From positions 16,596-80,595 of the forward strand of contig JACZJT010000017.1 of the NCBI GenBank assembly GCA_014860445.1: DNA of 64,000 bases, in the 5' to 3' direction. Source of the DNA: Burkholderiales bacterium. Its GTDB lineage: Bacteria > Pseudomonadota > Gammaproteobacteria > Burkholderiales > SG8-39. Of this stretch, positions 9,340 through 64,000 are shown one piece after another. How positions within the stretch are numbered: position 1 is the first letter of the stretch; each line of letters opens with the position of its first letter. A program made the position numbers and the translations under genes. The notes beneath the pieces were generated by a model, which saw only the letters and a program-made list of their open reading frames with translations, had not been told where the DNA came from and made no database searches.

Positions 9340-10000
9340 ACAGCGTGTGCGGGCGGTGCTGTTCGATCTGGACGGTACGCTCGCAGACACGGCGCCCGAT
9401 CTCGCGCGCGCCCTCAATCGCGTGCGCGCGGCCAATCTGCTGTCTCCAATGCCGCTTGAGACTACGCGGCCCTACACTTCCAGCGGCGCACGCGGCCTGC
9501 TCAAAATCGGTTTCGATCTGAACCCGGGAGACGAGCGCTACGAAGCGTTCAAACTGCAGTTTCTAGAGTTCTACGCCGCCGAGATTTGCATCGATACCTG
9601 TTTATTCGACGGCATGGCCGACTTGCTCGATTGCTTCGACAAGGATCGACTCCCCTGGGGGGTGGTGACCAACAAAGCGGAGCGTTTCACCTTGCCTCTG
9701 CTCCAGGGCCTGCGTTTGGACGAGCGCGCGGCCTGCATCGTCGGCGGCGACACGACGACGCGCTTGAAGCCGCACCCGGATTCGCTGCTGCACGCTGCTG
9801 CTGCGCTGCAGCTACCGCCCTCTGCCTGCCTGTACGTAGGCGACGATCTGCGCGACATACAGGCGGCGCGCGCCGCCGGCATGCCGGTGCTGGCGGCGAA
9901 ATATGGCTATCTGGGCGACGGCGGGCCGATTGAAACCTGGCAAGCCGACGCCGTCATCGAGCATCCGAGCGAAATACTCGAATTTCTACAGGCTGCTTGA
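9329..10000 (+). CDS. gph: phosphoglycolate phosphatase (HAD superfamily)
   Basis: HAD motif [14 protein letters not shown] and motif [18 protein letters not shown]. It overlaps the ubiG stop, as in the conserved ubiG-gph pair. The start could be the GTG at 9329 or the ATG at 9332. Confidence 0.8.
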
Positions 10001-10112
10001 TTTCCGCCTGATCTCGCCCCATATGCGATAATGTATTCGCAGTTTCGGAATGGCGGGCATGTCGCGGTGAAATTCCTCTCCGTTTCTTGCTTTCCGTTCC
10101 GCACCAGATACC

Positions 10113-10474
10113 GGGGGCGACCTGGTTTCGACGTGGGTTACAAAGCAGCGCAGTGCATACCGAGGCTCAGCTACCTCGTAAATCCAACTGAAACGCAATA
10201 ACCGCGAACGACGAACGTTTCGCACTAGCCGCTTAATACCGGCTAGCTCTGCACCGGTTGGTTCATGGGCCGGGTAACGCAAGTTACAGCAGAGTCATTC
10301 ACATGAGCTCGCGTGTTGCAGGGTCACTTTGCAGTACGCTAAAAAATAGGTGACTCGCCGTTTGCCAGCCTGCCGGTTGGCGGGTAAGCGGTCAAATCAA
10401 ACAACCTGGCTAAGTATGTAGATCTGTCTGTAGAGGGCTTGCGGACGGGGGTTCAATTCCCCCCGCCTCCACCA
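10113..10474 (+). ncRNA. ssrA: tmRNA (SsrA)
   Basis: 5' GGGGGCGACCUGGUUUCGACG pairs with 3' ...CGCCUCC-A-CCA, giving a 7-bp acceptor stem with the G3:U wobble. The T-arm is GGGGGUUCAAUUCCCCC. The tag reading frame at 10204-10236 (gcg aac gac gaa cgt ttc gca cta gcc gct taa) encodes ANDERFALAA*. Confidence 0.95.
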
Positions 10475-10477
10475 TCA

Positions 10478-10513
10478 AATGAAAATGCCACCCTCGCGGT
10501 GGCGTTTTCATTT
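10478..10513 (+). terminator. intrinsic terminator after ssrA
   Basis: aaatgaaaatgccacc-ctcgc-ggtggcgttttcattt forms a long stem with a U-rich 3' side. Confidence 0.7.
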
Positions 10514-10529
10514 GAAGACGCAGGTTCGC

Positions 10530-10569
10530 GGGAATTGAAGCCCCGTCTGGAACGGACGGGGGGTTCGAA
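10530..10569. repeat. inverted plus direct degenerate copies of the tmRNA T-arm / 3' region
   Basis: The reverse complement of 10530-10547 is gacggggcttcaattccc, matching tmRNA gacgggggttcaattccc at 17/18. 10554-10569 reads ggacggggggttcgaa, against tmRNA ggacgggggttcaatt. Confidence 0.6.
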
Positions 10570-10649
10570 AGGACACGAGGCCTGAACTGCTTCAGGCCTC
10601 GCGCCTTGAGAACGGCGAGCGCCTGCAGGCGCGAGCGCGCCCTGCAAGG

Positions 10650-57526: not shown

Positions 57527-57554
57527 CAAAAGAAACGGGGCGCTCGCGCGCCCC
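57527..57554 (-). terminator. intrinsic terminator ending the CHAT / cyclase / FecR-like operon
   Basis: On the minus strand, ggggcgc-gcga-gcgcccc is followed by guuucuuuu, about 25 nt after the stop at 57579. Confidence 0.65.
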
Positions 57555-57578
57555 TGATCCTGCCTGGCCCCTGATGGG

Positions 57579-58235
57579 CTAGATGCGGCTTTTCACGTAG
57601 GCCGCCAATTCCTTCGCTTCCACGTTATCCGGCTGGCGCTTGAGCATCTCGTCGGTTACCGTTTTCATTTCATCGTATAGGAGGTGGTCCTGCAGCACTG
57701 TATAAAAGTAGAGCTCAGGCGTGATGTCTTCGGGCGTCGCTTTCTGCCGCATCTGGGTATAGACCACTTTCGCCTGGCTTACTTCGGCCTGCTGTTCGGA
57801 TGACAGTCGACCGGGCTTGCCCCCACCGCGCACGGCGATACCACCCGAGCGGCCCAGCTTGGCGATCTGCACCAGATTGGGCACCTGCGCGATTTTCTGC
57901 GCCACACCGGACGGCAGTTGCGTCGCCTGCGCGGCCTGACCGCTGAGGGCTTCGCTTTGCTGGGTGCCAGCCTTGAAACTCGCCGGACCTTTCCAGGTTT
58001 CCTGACGACTGCCGTTGAAATACACCATCCGCAGCTGCGCGCCGGCTGGCAGCGTAAACCGGTCGCCCTGGCGCACCTTCATGTACGGCTGCGCCTTGGA
58101 CTCGGTTCCGCCCCTGCCCGCGTAACTCACCTCACCCGACAGCTGATTGATCAGACCTACATCGCTGGACTGGGCGTTAGCTCCCAGCGCCACGCCCAGG
58201 AGCAGAGCCGCAGAAATCGATTTCAGCAGTTTCAT
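57579..58235 (-). CDS. secreted FecR-like protein of unknown function
   Basis: 218 aa. Signal peptide MKLLKSISAALLLGVALGANA. The segment VRQGDRFTLPAGAQLRMVYFNGSRQETWKGPASFKAG resembles the FecR beta-sandwich pattern (GD..T..ga...l.f.dGs). The C-terminal third is helical and TPR-like. Confidence 0.6.
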   Translation of the reverse strand: MKLLKSISAALLLGVALGANAQSSDVGLINQLSGEVSYAGRGGTESKAQPYMKVRQGDRFTLPAGAQLRMVYFNGSRQETWKGPASFKAGTQQSEALSGQAAQATQLPSGVAQKIAQVPNLVQIAKLGRSGGIAVRGGGKPGRLSSEQQAEVSQAKVVYTQMRQKATPEDITPELYFYTVLQDHLLYDEMKTVTDEMLKRQPDNVEAKELAAYVKSRI

Positions 58236-58355
58236 ATGGATACCTCGTTCAGTGTGCCGCTATATGTTTAGTCTTGATTCCGGGAAAGCAGATTTTCTAC
58301 TTTATTCCGCTTTATACCCGTTTCACAGGTATTTTGTCACACTGGAGGGCCAGCT

Positions 58356-60263
58356 TTATCCGGCGCTGGGATCCAGCCCCAGAATTTCGAGCACCTCGAT
58401 TGCCTCGTCCTTGCCCTTGACCTTGATCGTTTCCACCTTGCCCGTGACGACCCCTTCCCCCGCCGCATCCACGCAGGCCTTGCTTGCGACGAGCACGCAC
58501 TTCATTTCCTTGGTCACCCCTTCCAGCCTGGAGGCGGCGTTGACGGTATCGCCGATCGCCGTAAATTCGGTGCGCTTGACCGAGCCGATGTCGCCGATCA
58601 CGGCTTCGCCGCTGTGCACGCCGATGCCGATGCCGAATTCGGGCAGGCCGCGATCGGGAAAACGCTCGCGCATCCACTGCTTGAAATCCTCGGCCTCGCG
58701 CGCCATCTGCAAAGCGGCCCGGATCGCGCGCCGCGCATGGTCCGGGTAGCGTACCGGCGAGCCGAAAATCGCCATCACGGCATCACCGATGAACTTGTTG
58801 ACCATGCCACCCTCGACCAGAATGGGCTCGGTCGTGCGGCTGAAATAGGCGTTGAGCATTTCCACGACTTCGCGCGCGTCTAGCTTCTCCGAAATGGTGG
58901 TGAAATTGCGAATGTCCGAAAACAATACCGTCACCTGCACGGATTCCCCGGCCAGATCCGGGCGTTCACCCTCGGTCAGCACCTTGACCACATCGTCCGA
59001 CACATAGCGGCCGAACATTTTCTTCAGGCGCGCGCGCTCGCGCTCCTCGCCGGTGAGCCGCAGTCCCAGCGTGGTCAGAAAGCCGATGGCCAGTGCCACC
59101 TGCATTCTGCCCGCAGGCACGATCCAGTCGTCCAGAAACATGAACCATGCAGGCGCAAGGCACAGCAGGCTCAGCGCCACCGCCACGAACAGGCCGCCGA
59201 CCGGGTGCAGGCGCAGGTAAAGCGCTGCAGCAACCGCGATCAGCGCCAGCACATAGAGCCACTCCGCCGTGAGCGGAATGCGCCGCGGATACTTTCCGGT
59301 GAGTATCGTCTCGACGATGTTCGCGTGGATTTCCCCGCCTATCATCTGGTCGCTCTGTTTGCCGAACGCCGCCCGGGAATAGGGGCTGGGATGGCGGTCC
59401 TGGGTGCCGCGATCGTTGGCGGCGATAATCACGACACGCCCGTTCAGTTTCTGCACCTCGGGATCGGCCAGGGCATCAGGCCCCAGCAGTTTGCTCATCG
59501 ACACCGTCAAAACGGTCCCGGGCGGGCCGGCATAGCCGATCAACCGCGGCCGTGCATCGCGCAACAGTTTCTCTCCTGCGATGTCCCATTCCTTCAGACT
59601 CGCGTCGAGCCCGGCCGCGCGCAGCGCGAGCTGCATCCCGAATCCCATGGCCGGTTTTTCCGGATCGGGATCGAACACCGGTAAATAGCGCCGCACCGAA
59701 TTGTCATCGTCGGGGTTCAGGTTGGCGATGCCGAGGTCGTTGATGCCCTGCGGCAGCAGGTACAAGTGGTCGCGCGGCGGCAGCAGCAGCCGCCCCTCTC
59801 CGTTCGACAGCTCGACCAGTTGCGTAATGAGTATTTTGTTGCCCGCGGCAAGCTGCGCGCGAAACGGTGAATCGTAGCTGCGGCTGCTTTCGTTTCCGGG
59901 AAGGTTCAGTTTTTTCAGCCAGTCCTCGGCGCTTACCTGGTAAAGATAGTCCAGGCCGATGACCTTGACCCCGGCACGCGTAAGCGTTTCCATCGCGCGC
60001 GCAAAGTGCGGTTGCCAGAATGCGAGCGGGTCATCCTTGTATTGGTCCAGTGTCTGCTCGTCCACGGCGACGACCGCGGTGTGGAGGGCATCGCGGCGCT
60101 TGCCGGCAAACTGGTGCCAGTAGTCGTAGTAGACGTTTTCCAGCGGGTCCAGCCATCCCAGACGCGACATCGCCTCGCTGCAGCCGAAGGCGACCGCCAG
60201 CACGAGGACAAAGCGCCAGGTGCTGCGCAGGCGGAACGACAGACTGGGCTTGTTCGCGTTCAT
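58356..60263 (-). CDS. CHASE2 sensor domain / class III adenylate cyclase
   Basis: ORF trimmed to MNANKPSLSFRLRSTWRFVLVLAVAF. The layout is one TM, an extracytoplasmic region of about 300 aa with the CHASE2 pattern, three TM, then the cyclase domain (VTVLFSDIRNFT, NKFIGDAVMAIFG, GIGVHSGEAVIGDIG, TAIGDTVNAASRLE). Confidence 0.88.
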   Translation of the reverse strand: MNANKPSLSFRLRSTWRFVLVLAVAFGCSEAMSRLGWLDPLENVYYDYWHQFAGKRRDALHTAVVAVDEQTLDQYKDDPLAFWQPHFARAMETLTRAGVKVIGLDYLYQVSAEDWLKKLNLPGNESSRSYDSPFRAQLAAGNKILITQLVELSNGEGRLLLPPRDHLYLLPQGINDLGIANLNPDDDNSVRRYLPVFDPDPEKPAMGFGMQLALRAAGLDASLKEWDIAGEKLLRDARPRLIGYAGPPGTVLTVSMSKLLGPDALADPEVQKLNGRVVIIAANDRGTQDRHPSPYSRAAFGKQSDQMIGGEIHANIVETILTGKYPRRIPLTAEWLYVLALIAVAAALYLRLHPVGGLFVAVALSLLCLAPAWFMFLDDWIVPAGRMQVALAIGFLTTLGLRLTGEERERARLKKMFGRYVSDDVVKVLTEGERPDLAGESVQVTVLFSDIRNFTTISEKLDAREVVEMLNAYFSRTTEPILVEGGMVNKFIGDAVMAIFGSPVRYPDHARRAIRAALQMAREAEDFKQWMRERFPDRGLPEFGIGIGVHSGEAVIGDIGSVKRTEFTAIGDTVNAASRLEGVTKEMKCVLVASKACVDAAGEGVVTGKVETIKVKGKDEAIEVLEILGLDPSAG

Positions 60264-60338
60264 CTGATATCGAAGGGAACCTCCCCTCACCCCCATATAT
60301 TGGCCCGCTGCATATTCGTTGCGCAGCGGGCCGTTGGA

Positions 60339-63300
60339 TCAATCCCCGACGTAGACGAATGCAGCCCAAAAGAACGGGTTGCTGCGTGAAAACTGATACT
60401 GTCCGCTCGCGTAAGTGCCGTCACGCAACTCGCGCTGCGCATCGCTGACGGCCTTGAGCGCCGTATCGCCCTTCTTGATGTTGCGGAAGGTCGAAGTCAT
60501 CAAGGCCTCGGTCGACAGGCTGTCCACGCTCCAGTGCGAAACCAGCAGGCTCTTTGCGCCCGCGAACATGAACGCGCGCGTCAGCCCGGCAAAACCCTCG
60601 CCGTTGTTCGCCTGCGCAGTGTCTCCCGCGGTATTGCACGCGGACAACGCCACCAGGTCGGCGTTCAGTTCCAAATCCTCGATCACCTCTTTCATGGTGA
60701 GCATGCCGTCCTCACCGTCCAGGTTGCCGACCAGGGTAAGTGCGAGCGCGGGCTGGGAGCGTAACTTCGCGCGCGGCGCGCTGCCGGCGCGACCGGCGGC
60801 CGGATCGAGGCCGATCAGGAATTCCCCGCCGAGAAACCCGTGGGTGGCGAACAGAACATAGATGCTGTCCCTGAGTTTGCCCGACTTCGCCATTTTCTCC
60901 TGCGCCGCGTCGCCGATGTAAAGATGGTTCCCGCCGCCCAGGATGGCGGCGATGCTGCGCGCTTCGTCCGCGGTTTCTTTCAGGCGCGGAATGTCCGGCG
61001 CGCCCTGGCGATCGACGCGGTAATTGCCGGCGAGCAGATCCAGCGCCACGCGCGTGGCCGGCGAATAGCTTTGCCCGGGCGGCGGTGCGAATACCGGATC
61101 GGCGAACGCGGTGAATTCCTGGCGCAGCCCCGTTACCGTCTTGGGATACAGGCGCTGCGACGCCAGCGCCGACAGGCTGGGCAGGTAGGCAAAGCGATGG
61201 TCCTTGCCCAGATAGGCGAGTGTGCCGTATTCACCGAGGAAAGGCCGCGCAGCGCTGCCATCGCTTGCCGCGCGCACGGATTCAAACACCTGCTGCTCGG
61301 CCTGGCCGTAACGCGTGACCAACAGTTCCAGCGGCACGGTGAGCAGCGGTCCGTCGGCCACGACAATGACTTTCTGCTTTCCGCCAAGTTCGGCAGCCAG
61401 CGGCTCGACCAGATCCCGGTAAAGCGAATTCAGATTGTCGGGCTCGATGTCGCGCAAAAACAGCACCGATTCGCCCACTGCCACTTTTTCGATCGCGTGG
61501 CGGATCGCGCGCACCCGCAGGCCCACGTCCTCGCGCTTGATGGCGACATTGACCATCCGGAAGTGATCGCGCGTCACCGCGAATATGGCCAGTTCCTGCG
61601 GCAGCAGCACATAGGAGAGCAGCACCTCGTCGGCACGCAGCAGCTTCTGCTGCAGATTCTGCACAGTCACCGGACGCGGATTGGTCAGTTCCATGAACCT
61701 CGGATAGTCGCGCCATAGCGCGTCTTCGAGCGCCGCCAGTTCCGCGTTCGCAGCCGCGAGCTGGGCGGCGAGATCGCTGCGGCGCGCCTCCAGACCGGTT
61801 TGCTTCAGCGGCAAGGTGGCGACGGACAGACGCAGGTGTTCTATTTGCTCCTGCAGCGTTTCCCGTTTGCGCTTCACGCGCAGAAACGCCGGATCACTGG
61901 AGAATTTCGCAACGTCCGCCTGGCGCATCATTTCGGTAAATGTCCGGCTCTGGTTGCGTGAAGCGATTTCCAGCACCTCGCGGTCATAGCCGGCCTGGGG
62001 CGCGCTCCGATGCAAATGCAGCAGCACCTTGATCGTTTCGAGGTAAATATTGCCGTACTGCCCGAGAAAAGCGGCGCGCGTTTCCTCGGACAGTCCGCGG
62101 GTGCGCACGTAAAGATAGTCGAGCGTGTCCACCGCCTCCTTGTAGAACGGCAGGGCCTCGCGATAGCGACCGCGCTTGGCGAGCGCGTAACCCAGCCGGC
62201 TGCTGTTGAGCAGCAGGATGCGCGGGTTGCCCGCCTGGCGCGCGATTTCCACCGCCCTGCGGTACAGGGCTTCGGACTCGGTCAGTTTGCCCTGCCGGTC
62301 GAGCATCACCGCCAGCGTGGTCAGCATGGCAGCCGTATCCGGGTGCAGGGGACCCAGGCTCTTTTCCAGGATGGCGAGCGCGCGCCGCTGCAGCGGCTCG
62401 GCCTCCTCCGGCCGGCCGCGGCGGTCGAGGTAGGTGCTGAGGTTGTTGAGGGTGTTCGCCGTGGCCGGATGCTCCGGCCCGAGGGTGTGCTCCTGGATCG
62501 CCAGCGCCTTGCGGAACAGGCGTTCGGTTTCCGTGTAGGCCTGCAGGTTGGACTGCGCCTGCGCGCGCGCCTCGCTGGGCGCGAGCAGTTCGTCTTTGGC
62601 CTGCTGCTGCAGCACGTTGGCGAGATTGTTCATGCTGGTCGCGGTGTCCGGATGCTCGGGTCCCAGCACCTTCTCGCGTACCGCGAGCGCACGCCGGTGC
62701 ACGGCCTCGGCTTCCTTGAATTTGCCCTGCAGATAAAGCACGTTGCCAAGGTTGGACAGACTGGTCGCGGTGGTCGGGCTATCCGGGCCCAGTGTTTTCT
62801 CGTGTATCGCGACCACCCGATAATGCAGGGTCTCGGCTTCACGATACTGACCGCGCTCGATCAGTTCCTGTGCGCGCACGCTCAACTGCTTGGCGTCTTC
62901 GCCGGGAACCGGCGTCGCGCCCGAGGTGGTTTCGCCGAACTTGCCCTGCAGATCGAGCACCCGCCCGAGGTTGGACAGGGTGGTGGCGGTGTCCTGATGC
63001 GCCCGCCCCAGCGTTTTTTCGAGTATGCGCAGCGAGCGGCGCAACAGCGATTCCGCACTCGGATAGTCCCCCAGTTTTTCCAGCACCAGCGCGAGATTGT
63101 TCAGCGCCGCCGCCGTGCTCACATGGTCCGGCCCCAGCCGCTGTTCATAAATATTCAGCGCAGCACTGAAATTCTTCTGCGCTTCCGCGTACTTGCCCTG
63201 ACGCAGCTGGGCATCGGCAATCACGTTGAGGCTGGTCGCGGTGTCCGGATGGCTGTCGCCGAATATTTTTTTCGCCTCATCGACCAGCAGGCGCGCGGAT

Positions 63301-63524
63301 TCTTCGCCGCGCGCGTACTCGCCCTTGGCGATCAGGGCTTCGGACTGATCCATGAGTTCCTGCCAGTGCCGGTCGTCGACGCGCGCGGCCTGCTGTGCAG
63401 CACGCGGCGCCTTCGCGCGTTTTTTCTGCTGCGTCTGGCCGTACGCCGACAGGTCGGCGCACAGCGCGAGCACGGCGGCAAGCACGGTCAGCAACAATCG
63501 GGCGGCAGGCGTACGCAGCTTCAT
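60339..63524 (-). CDS. signal-peptide TPR-repeat protein with C-terminal CHAT (caspase-like) protease domain
   Basis: ORF trimmed to MKLRTPAARLLLTVLAAVLALCADLSAYG. There are at least 8 TPR units with the recurrent LGP(E/D)HPDTA(T)SLNNLA motif. The C-terminal CHAT domain has an intact His (FATHGF) and Cys (LSACNTA). Confidence 0.88.
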   Translation of the reverse strand: MKLRTPAARLLLTVLAAVLALCADLSAYGQTQQKKRAKAPRAAQQAARVDDRHWQELMDQSEALIAKGEYARGEESARLLVDEAKKIFGDSHPDTATSLNVIADAQLRQGKYAEAQKNFSAALNIYEQRLGPDHVSTAAALNNLALVLEKLGDYPSAESLLRRSLRILEKTLGRAHQDTATTLSNLGRVLDLQGKFGETTSGATPVPGEDAKQLSVRAQELIERGQYREAETLHYRVVAIHEKTLGPDSPTTATSLSNLGNVLYLQGKFKEAEAVHRRALAVREKVLGPEHPDTATSMNNLANVLQQQAKDELLAPSEARAQAQSNLQAYTETERLFRKALAIQEHTLGPEHPATANTLNNLSTYLDRRGRPEEAEPLQRRALAILEKSLGPLHPDTAAMLTTLAVMLDRQGKLTESEALYRRAVEIARQAGNPRILLLNSSRLGYALAKRGRYREALPFYKEAVDTLDYLYVRTRGLSEETRAAFLGQYGNIYLETIKVLLHLHRSAPQAGYDREVLEIASRNQSRTFTEMMRQADVAKFSSDPAFLRVKRKRETLQEQIEHLRLSVATLPLKQTGLEARRSDLAAQLAAANAELAALEDALWRDYPRFMELTNPRPVTVQNLQQKLLRADEVLLSYVLLPQELAIFAVTRDHFRMVNVAIKREDVGLRVRAIRHAIEKVAVGESVLFLRDIEPDNLNSLYRDLVEPLAAELGGKQKVIVVADGPLLTVPLELLVTRYGQAEQQVFESVRAASDGSAARPFLGEYGTLAYLGKDHRFAYLPSLSALASQRLYPKTVTGLRQEFTAFADPVFAPPPGQSYSPATRVALDLLAGNYRVDRQGAPDIPRLKETADEARSIAAILGGGNHLYIGDAAQEKMAKSGKLRDSIYVLFATHGFLGGEFLIGLDPAAGRAGSAPRAKLRSQPALALTLVGNLDGEDGMLTMKEVIEDLELNADLVALSACNTAGDTAQANNGEGFAGLTRAFMFAGAKSLLVSHWSVDSLSTEALMTSTFRNIKKGDTALKAVSDAQRELRDGTYASGQYQFSRSNPFFWAAFVYVGD

Positions 63525-63665
63525 CGACCCCCACAGACGGGCTTGGAAGTGATCGATTATAGAGAACTGCGGCGCGCCGCGGGCCGTCATTCGGCGCAGG
63601 CGCCGCTTACATGCCGAACGCGAATGTGTCCGCGGAAATGCCCCGGGGCCGGGCCGCCCCGTCTG

Positions 63666-64000
63666 CTAATGCCCGCGCGCGATCAGGATGCTGCAGGGCG
63701 CATAGTCGAGCAGGGATGCGCCGACCGAACCCTTCCACCAACGCGCTGCAAATGAAAGCTTCTGACGGTGTCCGAGCACGATCAGGTCCGCCCCCAGGTC
63801 GGTGGCGACGCGGCAGATTTCTTCGACCGGTTCACCCACCGTCAGGTGGCCGATCGTGTTGAAACCCTGGTCCTTGAGCAATTGAATCCCCTCGTCGAGG
63901 ATTTCCTGAGTACGCTTTTTTTCCTCTTCCAGCAGTTCCTCGGGCAAAAAGCCCTCCGTCAGGAACAGGCTCGGCGGCATCCCCGCCACCGCCAGCAGAT
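63666..64000 (-). CDS. universal stress protein family, C-terminal part (gene runs off the window end)
   Basis: ...VEEICRVATDLGADLIVLGHRQKLSFAARWWKGSVGASLLDYAPCSILIARGH is the USP C-terminal ATP-binding pattern (G-2x-G-9x-GS). The frame stays open to position 64000. Confidence 0.75.
   Translation of the reverse strand, partial: LLAVAGMPPSLFLTEGFLPEELLEEEKKRTQEILDEGIQLLKDQGFNTIGHLTVGEPVEEICRVATDLGADLIVLGHRQKLSFAARWWKGSVGASLLDYAPCSILIARGH

Follow-up and report, generated by a model that had tools for sequence, protein, structure and literature searches.

CHASE2 is a widespread sensor domain that was named in 2003. To our knowledge, the only CHASE2 cyclases studied are those of Sinorhizobium, in which an accessory protein mediates the response to a protein signal. 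Work by Tian in 2012 and by Garnerone in 2018 reportedly also concerns this accessory, NsrA, together with the CHASE2 adenylate cyclases CyaK, CyaD1 and CyaD2. Here we describe a locus of a Burkholderiales bacterium, located in a 64,000 nt stretch of contig JACZJT010000017.1 (the window), in which the list of open reading frames (ORFs) and the gene call on the source contig place three minus-strand genes head to tail. Gene 1 encodes a predicted exported TPR-CHAT protease, gene 2 a putative CHASE2 receptor adenylate cyclase, and gene 3 a small, apparently secreted protein without a family name. As late as 2023, CHASE2 ligands were described as unknown (PMC10581220). Because the three genes are kept together across distant bacteria, they probably make up one uncharacterised outside-sensing device. 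With moderate confidence, we read the locus as one extracytoplasmic sensory module that controls cyclic AMP (cAMP) synthesis, with the protease processing the signal.

The closest studied system is the NsrA-CyaK pair of Sinorhizobium. CyaK of S. meliloti, a CHASE2 cyclase, needs the adjacent NsrA to perceive a protease-sensitive protein signal, the ribosomal protein uL2 (PMC7529298; PMC13001267). NsrA is encoded on pSymB directly upstream of CyaK and has 1209 residues, with a FecR domain (residues 85-179), TPR repeats (430-606) and an outer-membrane barrel. In both systems an inner-membrane receptor with CHASE2 and class III cyclase domains is encoded beside an extracytoplasmic accessory, and NsrA, like the gene 3 protein, combines a beta-rich domain with TPR-type helices. 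However, NsrA is a large beta-barrel protein of the outer membrane and has a true FecR domain, whereas the 218-residue gene 3 product is predicted to be soluble and shows no detectable relation to it. A tblastn search with NsrA found no barrel partner of this type in the window or in 79 related loci. The Sinorhizobium plasmids also differ in that no CHAT protein was found on them. Sinorhizobium was absent from the top organisms among plasmid CHAT matches, and SMb20495 is for this reason unlikely to be a CHAT protein. The ORF immediately upstream of nsrA-cyaK on S. meliloti pSymB (L083:3189-3797, minus strand), a plasmid whose record is hardly annotated, matches Pfam PycTM, a Pycsar effector, at 1.2e-11.

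The Burkholderia BiofilmReg operon encodes a response regulator, a LysM-FecR protein and a CHASE2 histidine kinase (PMC5192318). It resembles the present locus in that a CHASE2 receptor and a small secreted accessory share one operon in Betaproteobacteria, and differs in its histidine kinase output, its LysM-FecR accessory and the lack of a protease gene. Gene 3 holds the same accessory position as the FecR-domain proteins beside other CHASE2 receptors. In cyanobacteria, clan CD proteases are repeatedly tied to CHASE2. Trichodesmium has a metacaspase-CHASE2 fusion (PMC3501461), and a plasmid of Calothrix sp. 336/3 (L088, 3959-11502) carries genes for a POTRA-TPR-CHAT protein of 1415 residues, a DUF928 protein, a stand-alone CHASE2 protein of 439 residues and a CHAT-TIR protein. 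In contrast to our locus, the caspase of the Trichodesmium fusion is cytoplasmic, the Calothrix CHASE2 protein lacks a cyclase, and the small DUF928 protein is unrelated to gene 3. The Calothrix cluster suggests a wider, undescribed CHAT-CHASE2 association.

TPR-CHAT is also part of Craspase, in which the type III-E CRISPR protein Cas7-11/gRAMP is reported to be combined with TPR-CHAT (Csx29), and Csx30 to be the substrate. Both Craspase and the present locus have a TPR-CHAT protein with a caspase-like His/Cys dyad and a small partner encoded next door; in Craspase, proteolysis serves as a signalling switch. Craspase is cytoplasmic, RNA-guided and CRISPR-linked, whereas the gene 1 protein carries a predicted signal peptide. 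No cas genes were present among the identified neighbours (uspA, earP, efp and metabolic genes), for which no dedicated CRISPR-array scan was made. Membership of gene 1 in the Craspase (Csx29) type was rejected on the signal peptide seen in all homologues, the uspA, earP and efp neighbours, and a PADLOC result limited to a generic TPR match. A full-text literature search found no paper linking CHAT with CHASE2.

Conservation of the gene neighbourhood

One genome per GTDB species was scanned with a 13-sequence alignment of the closer gene 3 relatives, a query that biases the sample toward Betaproteobacteria, and 79 loci encoding gene 3 relatives were returned. Upstream genes were counted in loci with enough DNA, that is at least 2.2 kb for the cyclase (n=69) and at least 5.6 kb for CHAT (n=53). 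A CHASE2-cyclase gene was directly upstream of gene 3 in 68 of 69 loci, and TPR-CHAT was found upstream of the cyclase as well in 43 of 53, at identities down to about 50%. Three Thermodesulfobacteriota loci (L075, L077 and L078) showed the permuted order cyclase, gene 3, TPR-CHAT; there, a TPR-CHAT protein with a signal peptide was identified by Pfam in L077 and L078, and L075 was assigned by a tblastn CHAT match only. The first-pass annotation had named a lack of synteny in relatives as one result that would speak against a joint unit, and the three genes proved to be syntenic across phyla. Moreover, the stop of gene 2 and the start of gene 3 overlap by 4 nt in L068, L074, L075 and L086. Two tandem gene 3 paralogues lie between the cyclase and the downstream gene in 27 of the 79 loci; the window has one copy.

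The strongest evidence for linkage came from three metagenomic fusions (P0163, P0185 and P0358), in which a complete gene 3 module, its conserved loop motif included, is joined to a Peptidase_C14 caspase domain that appears to be active. All three fusion genes are directly downstream of a CHASE2+Guanylate_cyc gene, and TPR-CHAT genes then follow two of them. Synteny, permutation of gene order across phyla and gene fusions strongly support a predicted functional linkage of the three genes. The assignment of gene 3 as a dedicated, putatively secreted partner of this CHASE2 receptor subfamily is strongly supported as well, and so is the observation that gene 1 travels with the cyclase/gene 3 pair in most lineages.

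Further arrangements were seen around related genes. The pMSHV row of Sphingobium herbicidovorans consists of Crp/Fnr, CHAT, CHASE2-cyclase, a 239-residue protein without Pfam match, and ShlB. Like the Calothrix cluster, this row brings CHAT and CHASE2 together beside a different small protein and adds to the evidence for linkage. On plasmid p1 of Caballeronia grimmiae (L090, 5186-14345), a CHAT gene is located beside an ShlB/FhaC transporter, a filamentous-haemagglutinin-type protein and a type VI secretion cluster. The ShlB genes, which lie beside CHAT in Caballeronia and after the CHAT-CHASE2 operon in Sphingobium, hint that two-partner secretion handles some CHAT proteins. A signal-peptide Peptidase_C14-DUF4384 protein is encoded about 5 kb upstream of one CHASE2-cyclase/gene 3 pair (L065:418-1929, minus strand), a separate DUF4384 protein near another (L086:10114-10833), and, immediately upstream of a third (L087:2-1792), a TPR protein that contains a Peptidase_M48-like stretch. 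Searches by tblastn with Crp/Fnr, ShlB, the Peptidase_C14 protein and NsrA found nothing in the window or the 79 loci beyond the source locus of each query. In a close relative with 83% identity (L010:10001-10654), gene 3 is next to earP, and neither a cyclase nor CHAT is encoded within 10 kb upstream; this arrangement could be a deletion or an artefact of assembling a metagenome-assembled genome (MAG).

Predicted architecture and placement of the three proteins

In gene 1, Pfam matched TPR_12 in 8 stretches (9.5e-102), TPR_10 in 7 stretches, and CHAT (PF12770, clan CD) at 7.4e-46, with 157.3 bits against a curated cutoff of 24. The motifs FATHGF at 914 and LSACNTA at 982 hold the catalytic residues His917 (nt 60840-60842) and Cys985 (nt 60636-60638). 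Both residues are invariant in an alignment of 43 sequences, which comprises 41 full-length homologues from related loci, the window protein and the Sphingobium protein. The conserved dyad strongly supports the prediction of a catalytically intact, caspase-like clan CD protease. An N-terminal hydrophobic segment ending in an AxA/Q-type site was likewise present in 43/43, and since conservation among the homologues begins at MKLRT, the true start is probably the ATG at 63524. In the mature protein (about 1031 residues), the single Cys is the catalytic Cys985, a pattern that holds in 38 of the 43; the gene 3 protein and the CHASE2 ectodomain have zero Cys each. Such a distribution would fit proteins of an oxidising periplasm with a free active-site thiol. 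Thus the cleavable signal peptide, the at least eight TPR units, the intact catalytic residues and the periplasmic orientation that the first-pass annotation had given to this protease are all supported as predictions. A PDB sequence search with the CHAT half gave zero matches, so this half has no close relative with a solved structure. Residues 52-77 (63360-63437, minus strand), just past the cleavage site, form a low-complexity stretch rich in Gln, Lys, Ala and Pro (QTQQKKRAKAPRAAQQAAR), and comparable basic or Pro-rich stretches are found at this place in relatives.

Gene 2 matched Pfam CHASE2 (PF05226) at 1.5e-32 (113.6 bits against a cutoff of 26.3) and Guanylate_cyc at 2.4e-24; its residues are numbered here on the 646-residue form. 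Hydropathy revealed four hydrophobic segments (29-43, 347-361, 366-380 and 400-414), and CHASE2 is bracketed by transmembrane (TM) segment 1 and TM2-4. The Pfam match and the hydropathy peaks agree with the earlier placement of CHASE2 between TM segments, and an inner-membrane receptor with CHASE2 outside and the cyclase inside is strongly supported as the predicted topology. The cyclase domain has D461 and D505 for metal, K501 and T579 for substrate, and N586 and R590 for the transition state, with a KFIGD motif at 501. Among 67 homologues, T579 is present in 66 and the other five residues are invariant, including the two metal Asp and the Lys before FIGD that had been pointed out before. Linder and Schultz are said to have described in 2003 that a Lys/Thr pair instead of Lys/Asp is the signature of class IIIb, which is ATP-specific. 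A complete class III cyclase of the K/T type, probably class IIIb-like, is strongly supported. The best PDB relatives of this domain are adenylate cyclases, including CyaC 1wc1. Because the PDB matches cover residue 347 onward only (TM/linker and cyclase), no solved relative of CHASE2 was found by sequence.

The gene 3 protein begins with a signal peptide of the classic type, as had been proposed (residues 1-21, MKLLKSISAALLLGVALGANA/Q, with an ANA/Q site). The label of a FecR-like beta-sandwich, on the other hand, did not survive. Gene 3 had no match in Pfam or NCBIfam, Pfam FecR PF04773 included (E<=0.01), and 0 of 58 diverse family members matched FecR even at E<=1. When the family profile was compared by hhalign with the true FecR domain of NsrA from S. 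meliloti, the probability was 0.4%, and neither the Foldseek search with the entire model nor that with the isolated beta domain listed a FecR structure among its top 50 matches. A FecR identity was ruled out by these results. DUF928 (PF06051) was rejected as well, with no Pfam match and an hhalign probability of 0.2% against the Calothrix protein, and so was a relation to the 239-residue Sphingobium protein (hhalign probability 5.9%). Clustered at 50% identity, the family found by an exhaustive HMMER search has 513 representatives, almost all with about 220 residues. By these profile searches, gene 3 defines a new, distinct and previously unnamed protein family of about 513 clusters.

The AlphaFold2 (AF2) model of the gene 3 protein (pLDDT 85, pTM 0.78) consists of a beta-sandwich (25-106), a low-confidence loop (129-145) and a four-helix TPR-like domain (146-217). 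For the helical part, the matches that Foldseek listed with the whole model were TPR/Fis1-like only. When the beta domain was modelled alone (pLDDT 87), the sole confident Foldseek match among those listed was 5ix9, a 76-residue 'cell surface anchoring domain', at probability 1.0 and TM 0.78 on the target. In the loop, which carries the motif GGxxVRG, residues G131, G132, V135, R136 and G137 are near-invariant across the family. Taken over the three proteins, an extracytoplasmic placement of all sensory and protease parts is strongly supported as a prediction.

A proposed module and alternative explanations

In the module that we favour, the gene 3 protein would be a stoichiometric co-receptor or adaptor that binds the CHASE2 domain and brings the caspase-like clan CD protease to the receptor. 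The same protease link would be covalent in those lineages where the gene 3 module is fused to Peptidase_C14. The TPR array of the protease may capture a periplasmic or envelope protein, and cleavage would then create or remove a species that is read by the CHASE2/gene 3 complex, so that cAMP output is switched. Protease gating of cAMP synthesis thus appears plausible. What is newly seen is the cross-phylum genetic coupling of CHASE2 cyclases, an unnamed secreted family and exported caspase-like proteases, and this coupling suggests the hypothesis that CHASE2 may read a proteolytic event or its product. A more specific version can be put forward only tentatively, namely that the locus encodes a bacterial protease-activated receptor. 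Here the gene 3 module would dock clan CD proteases on CHASE2 cyclases, CHAT in trans and Peptidase_C14 in cis, and cleavage at the receptor would be the input of CHASE2; the target could be a captured protein, from the envelope or foreign, or else the adaptor or the ectodomain of the receptor. If this docking reading is true, the cleavage event would be the long-sought CHASE2 input and periplasmic proteolysis would be converted into cAMP. Caspase-fold proteases would also gain a part in signalling within the bacterial periplasm, beyond immunity and cell death. Of the joint extracytoplasmic unit proposed in the first-pass annotation, the synteny, the permutation and the fusions speak for the unit as a whole, the periplasmic placement of the protease is supported too, and the FecR component has been lost.

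Several points weigh against the favoured module. The linkage of the three proteins is known from their genes alone, the assignment of cAMP as the product of gene 2 follows from the K/T residues only, and the close relatives are all from uncultured MAGs. Within the flanks examined, a full CHAT gene is missing from 8 loci whose upstream DNA spans at least 5.6 kb; among them, L010 also lacks the cyclase and L058 retains only a short C-terminal CHAT remnant. In three loci, unrelated genes are inserted between gene 1 and gene 2, so co-transcription with the protease is not universal. Whether or not a CHAT gene is adjacent, the GGxxVRG loop of gene 3 shows the same degree of conservation, and therefore it does not mark a CHAT-specific cleavage site. 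The eight loci and the inserted genes indicate that the cyclase/gene 3 pair forms the core, to which the protease is frequently added as a third part. Since the pair would be able to function where no CHAT gene is adjacent, the protease would be an upstream modulator and not a core transducer.

The gene 3 protein could instead be the substrate of the protease and keep the CHASE2 cyclase inactive (or active) as long as TPR-CHAT has not cut the exposed conserved loop. Many clan CD proteases cut after Arg, the near-invariant loop residues include R136, and in the AF2 model the loop is of low confidence and presumably flexible between two well-folded domains. The reported Craspase logic also pairs TPR-CHAT with a small neighbouring substrate, Csx30. 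However, besides the conservation of the loop where no CHAT gene is adjacent, the stop/start overlap with the cyclase gene suggests a stoichiometric subunit and not a consumable, and a gene 3 module covalently joined to a caspase domain fits an adaptor better; we consider the substrate role unlikely. Rather less probable is a reverse flow, in which the CHASE2/gene 3 complex would be a ligand-dependent activator or inhibitor of the protease, whose activity would be a periplasmic output beside cAMP, for example in envelope remodelling or regulated cell death. In Trichodesmium (PMC3501461), a caspase domain is joined to CHASE2 and is apparently its output, and the stand-alone CHASE2 protein of Calothrix has no cytoplasmic output and is encoded beside the CHAT, DUF928 and CHAT-TIR genes. 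In every gene 3-family locus examined, on the other hand, the CHASE2 protein has an intact cyclase, so the cytoplasmic output is always kept, and the component that can be missing is CHAT.

Two other explanations are poorly supported. That only the cyclase/gene 3 pair is functional, with TPR-CHAT as a lineage-specific neighbour of unrelated periplasmic role, appears very unlikely. The loci without a full CHAT gene and those with inserted genes agree with it, and uspA is upstream in 16 of 43 loci, showing that plain synteny persists in this clade. Yet in Thermodesulfobacteriota CHAT turns up again on the opposite side of the pair, and elsewhere it follows the caspase-fused gene 3 modules on unrelated metagenomic contigs, and adjoins CHASE2 in Sphingobium and Calothrix with different small proteins. 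Inherited gene order is no explanation for such independent re-association in several phyla. An anti-phage or conflict operon of the Pycsar-like or caspase type, with a cyclic nucleotide as alarm and the protease as effector, is the least probable reading and seems highly improbable. The cyclase domain does match PADLOC PycC models (best 4.1e-30), caspase-like proteases are reported to act in bacterial immunity, and TIR (Calothrix) and PycTM-like (S. meliloti) genes occur near related CHASE2 loci. But the PycC matches reflect general class III homology, with ordinary adenylate cyclases as the best PDB relatives, and PADLOC found no effector, nothing for gene 3 and only the generic TPR match for gene 1. 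Pycsar membership was rejected because neither gene 1 nor gene 3 is matched by an effector model. Moreover, the locus has uniform GC content with its flanks and lies between housekeeping genes in stable synteny, and since the protease is predicted to be exported, a cytoplasmic nucleotide could not reach it.

Gene layout and flanking sequence

The positions of the features are collected in Table 1. The gene caller on the source contig gave 1083, 635 and 218 residues for genes 1, 2 and 3. Gene 1 and gene 2 are separated by about 75 nt (60264-60338, from the 635-residue start) and gene 2 and gene 3 by 120 nt (58236-58355), so the ORF list and the coordinates bear out the earlier description of three closely spaced genes on one strand.

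Table 1. Features of the three-gene locus, in window coordinates unless a related locus is named
Feature	Position	Strand	Basis and remarks
Gene 1, TPR-CHAT caspase-like protease, predicted secreted	60339..63590	-	ORF list, Pfam, homologue alignment; 1083 aa from first ATG
Gene 1 predicted signal peptide, MKLRTPAARLLLTVLAAVLALCADLSAYG/Q, residues 23-51 of the 1083-aa ORF	63438..63524	-	hydrophobic peak at residues 25-51
Gene 1 TPR array, about residues 110-491	62118..63263	-	Pfam TPR_12, TPR_10
Gene 1 CHAT domain, residues 720-1083	60342..61433	-	Pfam CHAT
Gene 2, putative CHASE2 receptor adenylate cyclase	58356..60263	-	ORF list, gene call, Pfam; 635 aa
Gene 2, alternative upstream ATG	60296	-	ORF list; 58356-60296 = 646 aa
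Gene 2 CHASE2 domain, predicted periplasmic, residues 45-356	59229..60164	-	Pfam, hydropathy, Cys positions
Gene 2 class III cyclase domain, predicted cytoplasmic, residues 453-632	58401..58940	-	Pfam Guanylate_cyc
Gene 3, small predicted secreted partner, unnamed family	57579..58235	-	218 aa; no Pfam or NCBIfam match
TATAAT hexamer, candidate -10 element	63556..63561	-	32 nt upstream of the likely gene 1 start 63524
Intrinsic-terminator-like hairpin and U-rich tract	57527..57554	-	terminator scan; 25 nt past the gene 3 stop
Tandem gene 3 paralogues in L006, L008, L009, L014, L065 and 22 other loci	e.g. L065:9263-9874, 9923-10591		

The first-pass annotation had also described the operon as insulated on both sides, by a minus-strand TATAAT upstream and a terminator downstream. 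Both elements are present, and the claim of insulation is weak on the uspA side. Downstream of gene 3, the stem-loop GGGGCGC-GCGA-GCGCCCC (57554-57537) is followed by a U-rich tail, and the RNA fold has -31.5 kcal/mol (z = -2.4). On the uspA side, the promoter scan found no -35 partner for the TATAAT (63561-63556), the window contains two exact copies of this hexamer where 3.9 would be expected by chance, and if the 1083-residue start of gene 1 were used, the hexamer would sit inside the ORF. Its spacing to the likely start is suggestive, and the evidence for a promoter is weak overall. As the terminator scan detected no terminator between uspA and gene 1, read-through from uspA into gene 1 is possible. 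A CRP-box scan detected no site near the operon.

GC content across the locus is uniform with that of the flanks, by which a genomic island was ruled out. The Usp gene on the same strand (63666-64000, minus) is about 75-140 nt upstream of gene 1; a comparable gene is at L001:441-875. In 16 of 43 related loci, among them lineages at 65-75% identity, the TPR-CHAT gene has Usp as its immediate upstream neighbour, and earP was found close to gene 3 in just 15 of 68 loci. Several long ORFs, the longest of 581 residues, run antisense to genes 1 and 2 (for example 62010-63755 and 60840-61718, plus strand) and are most probably by-products of high G+C content rather than genes.

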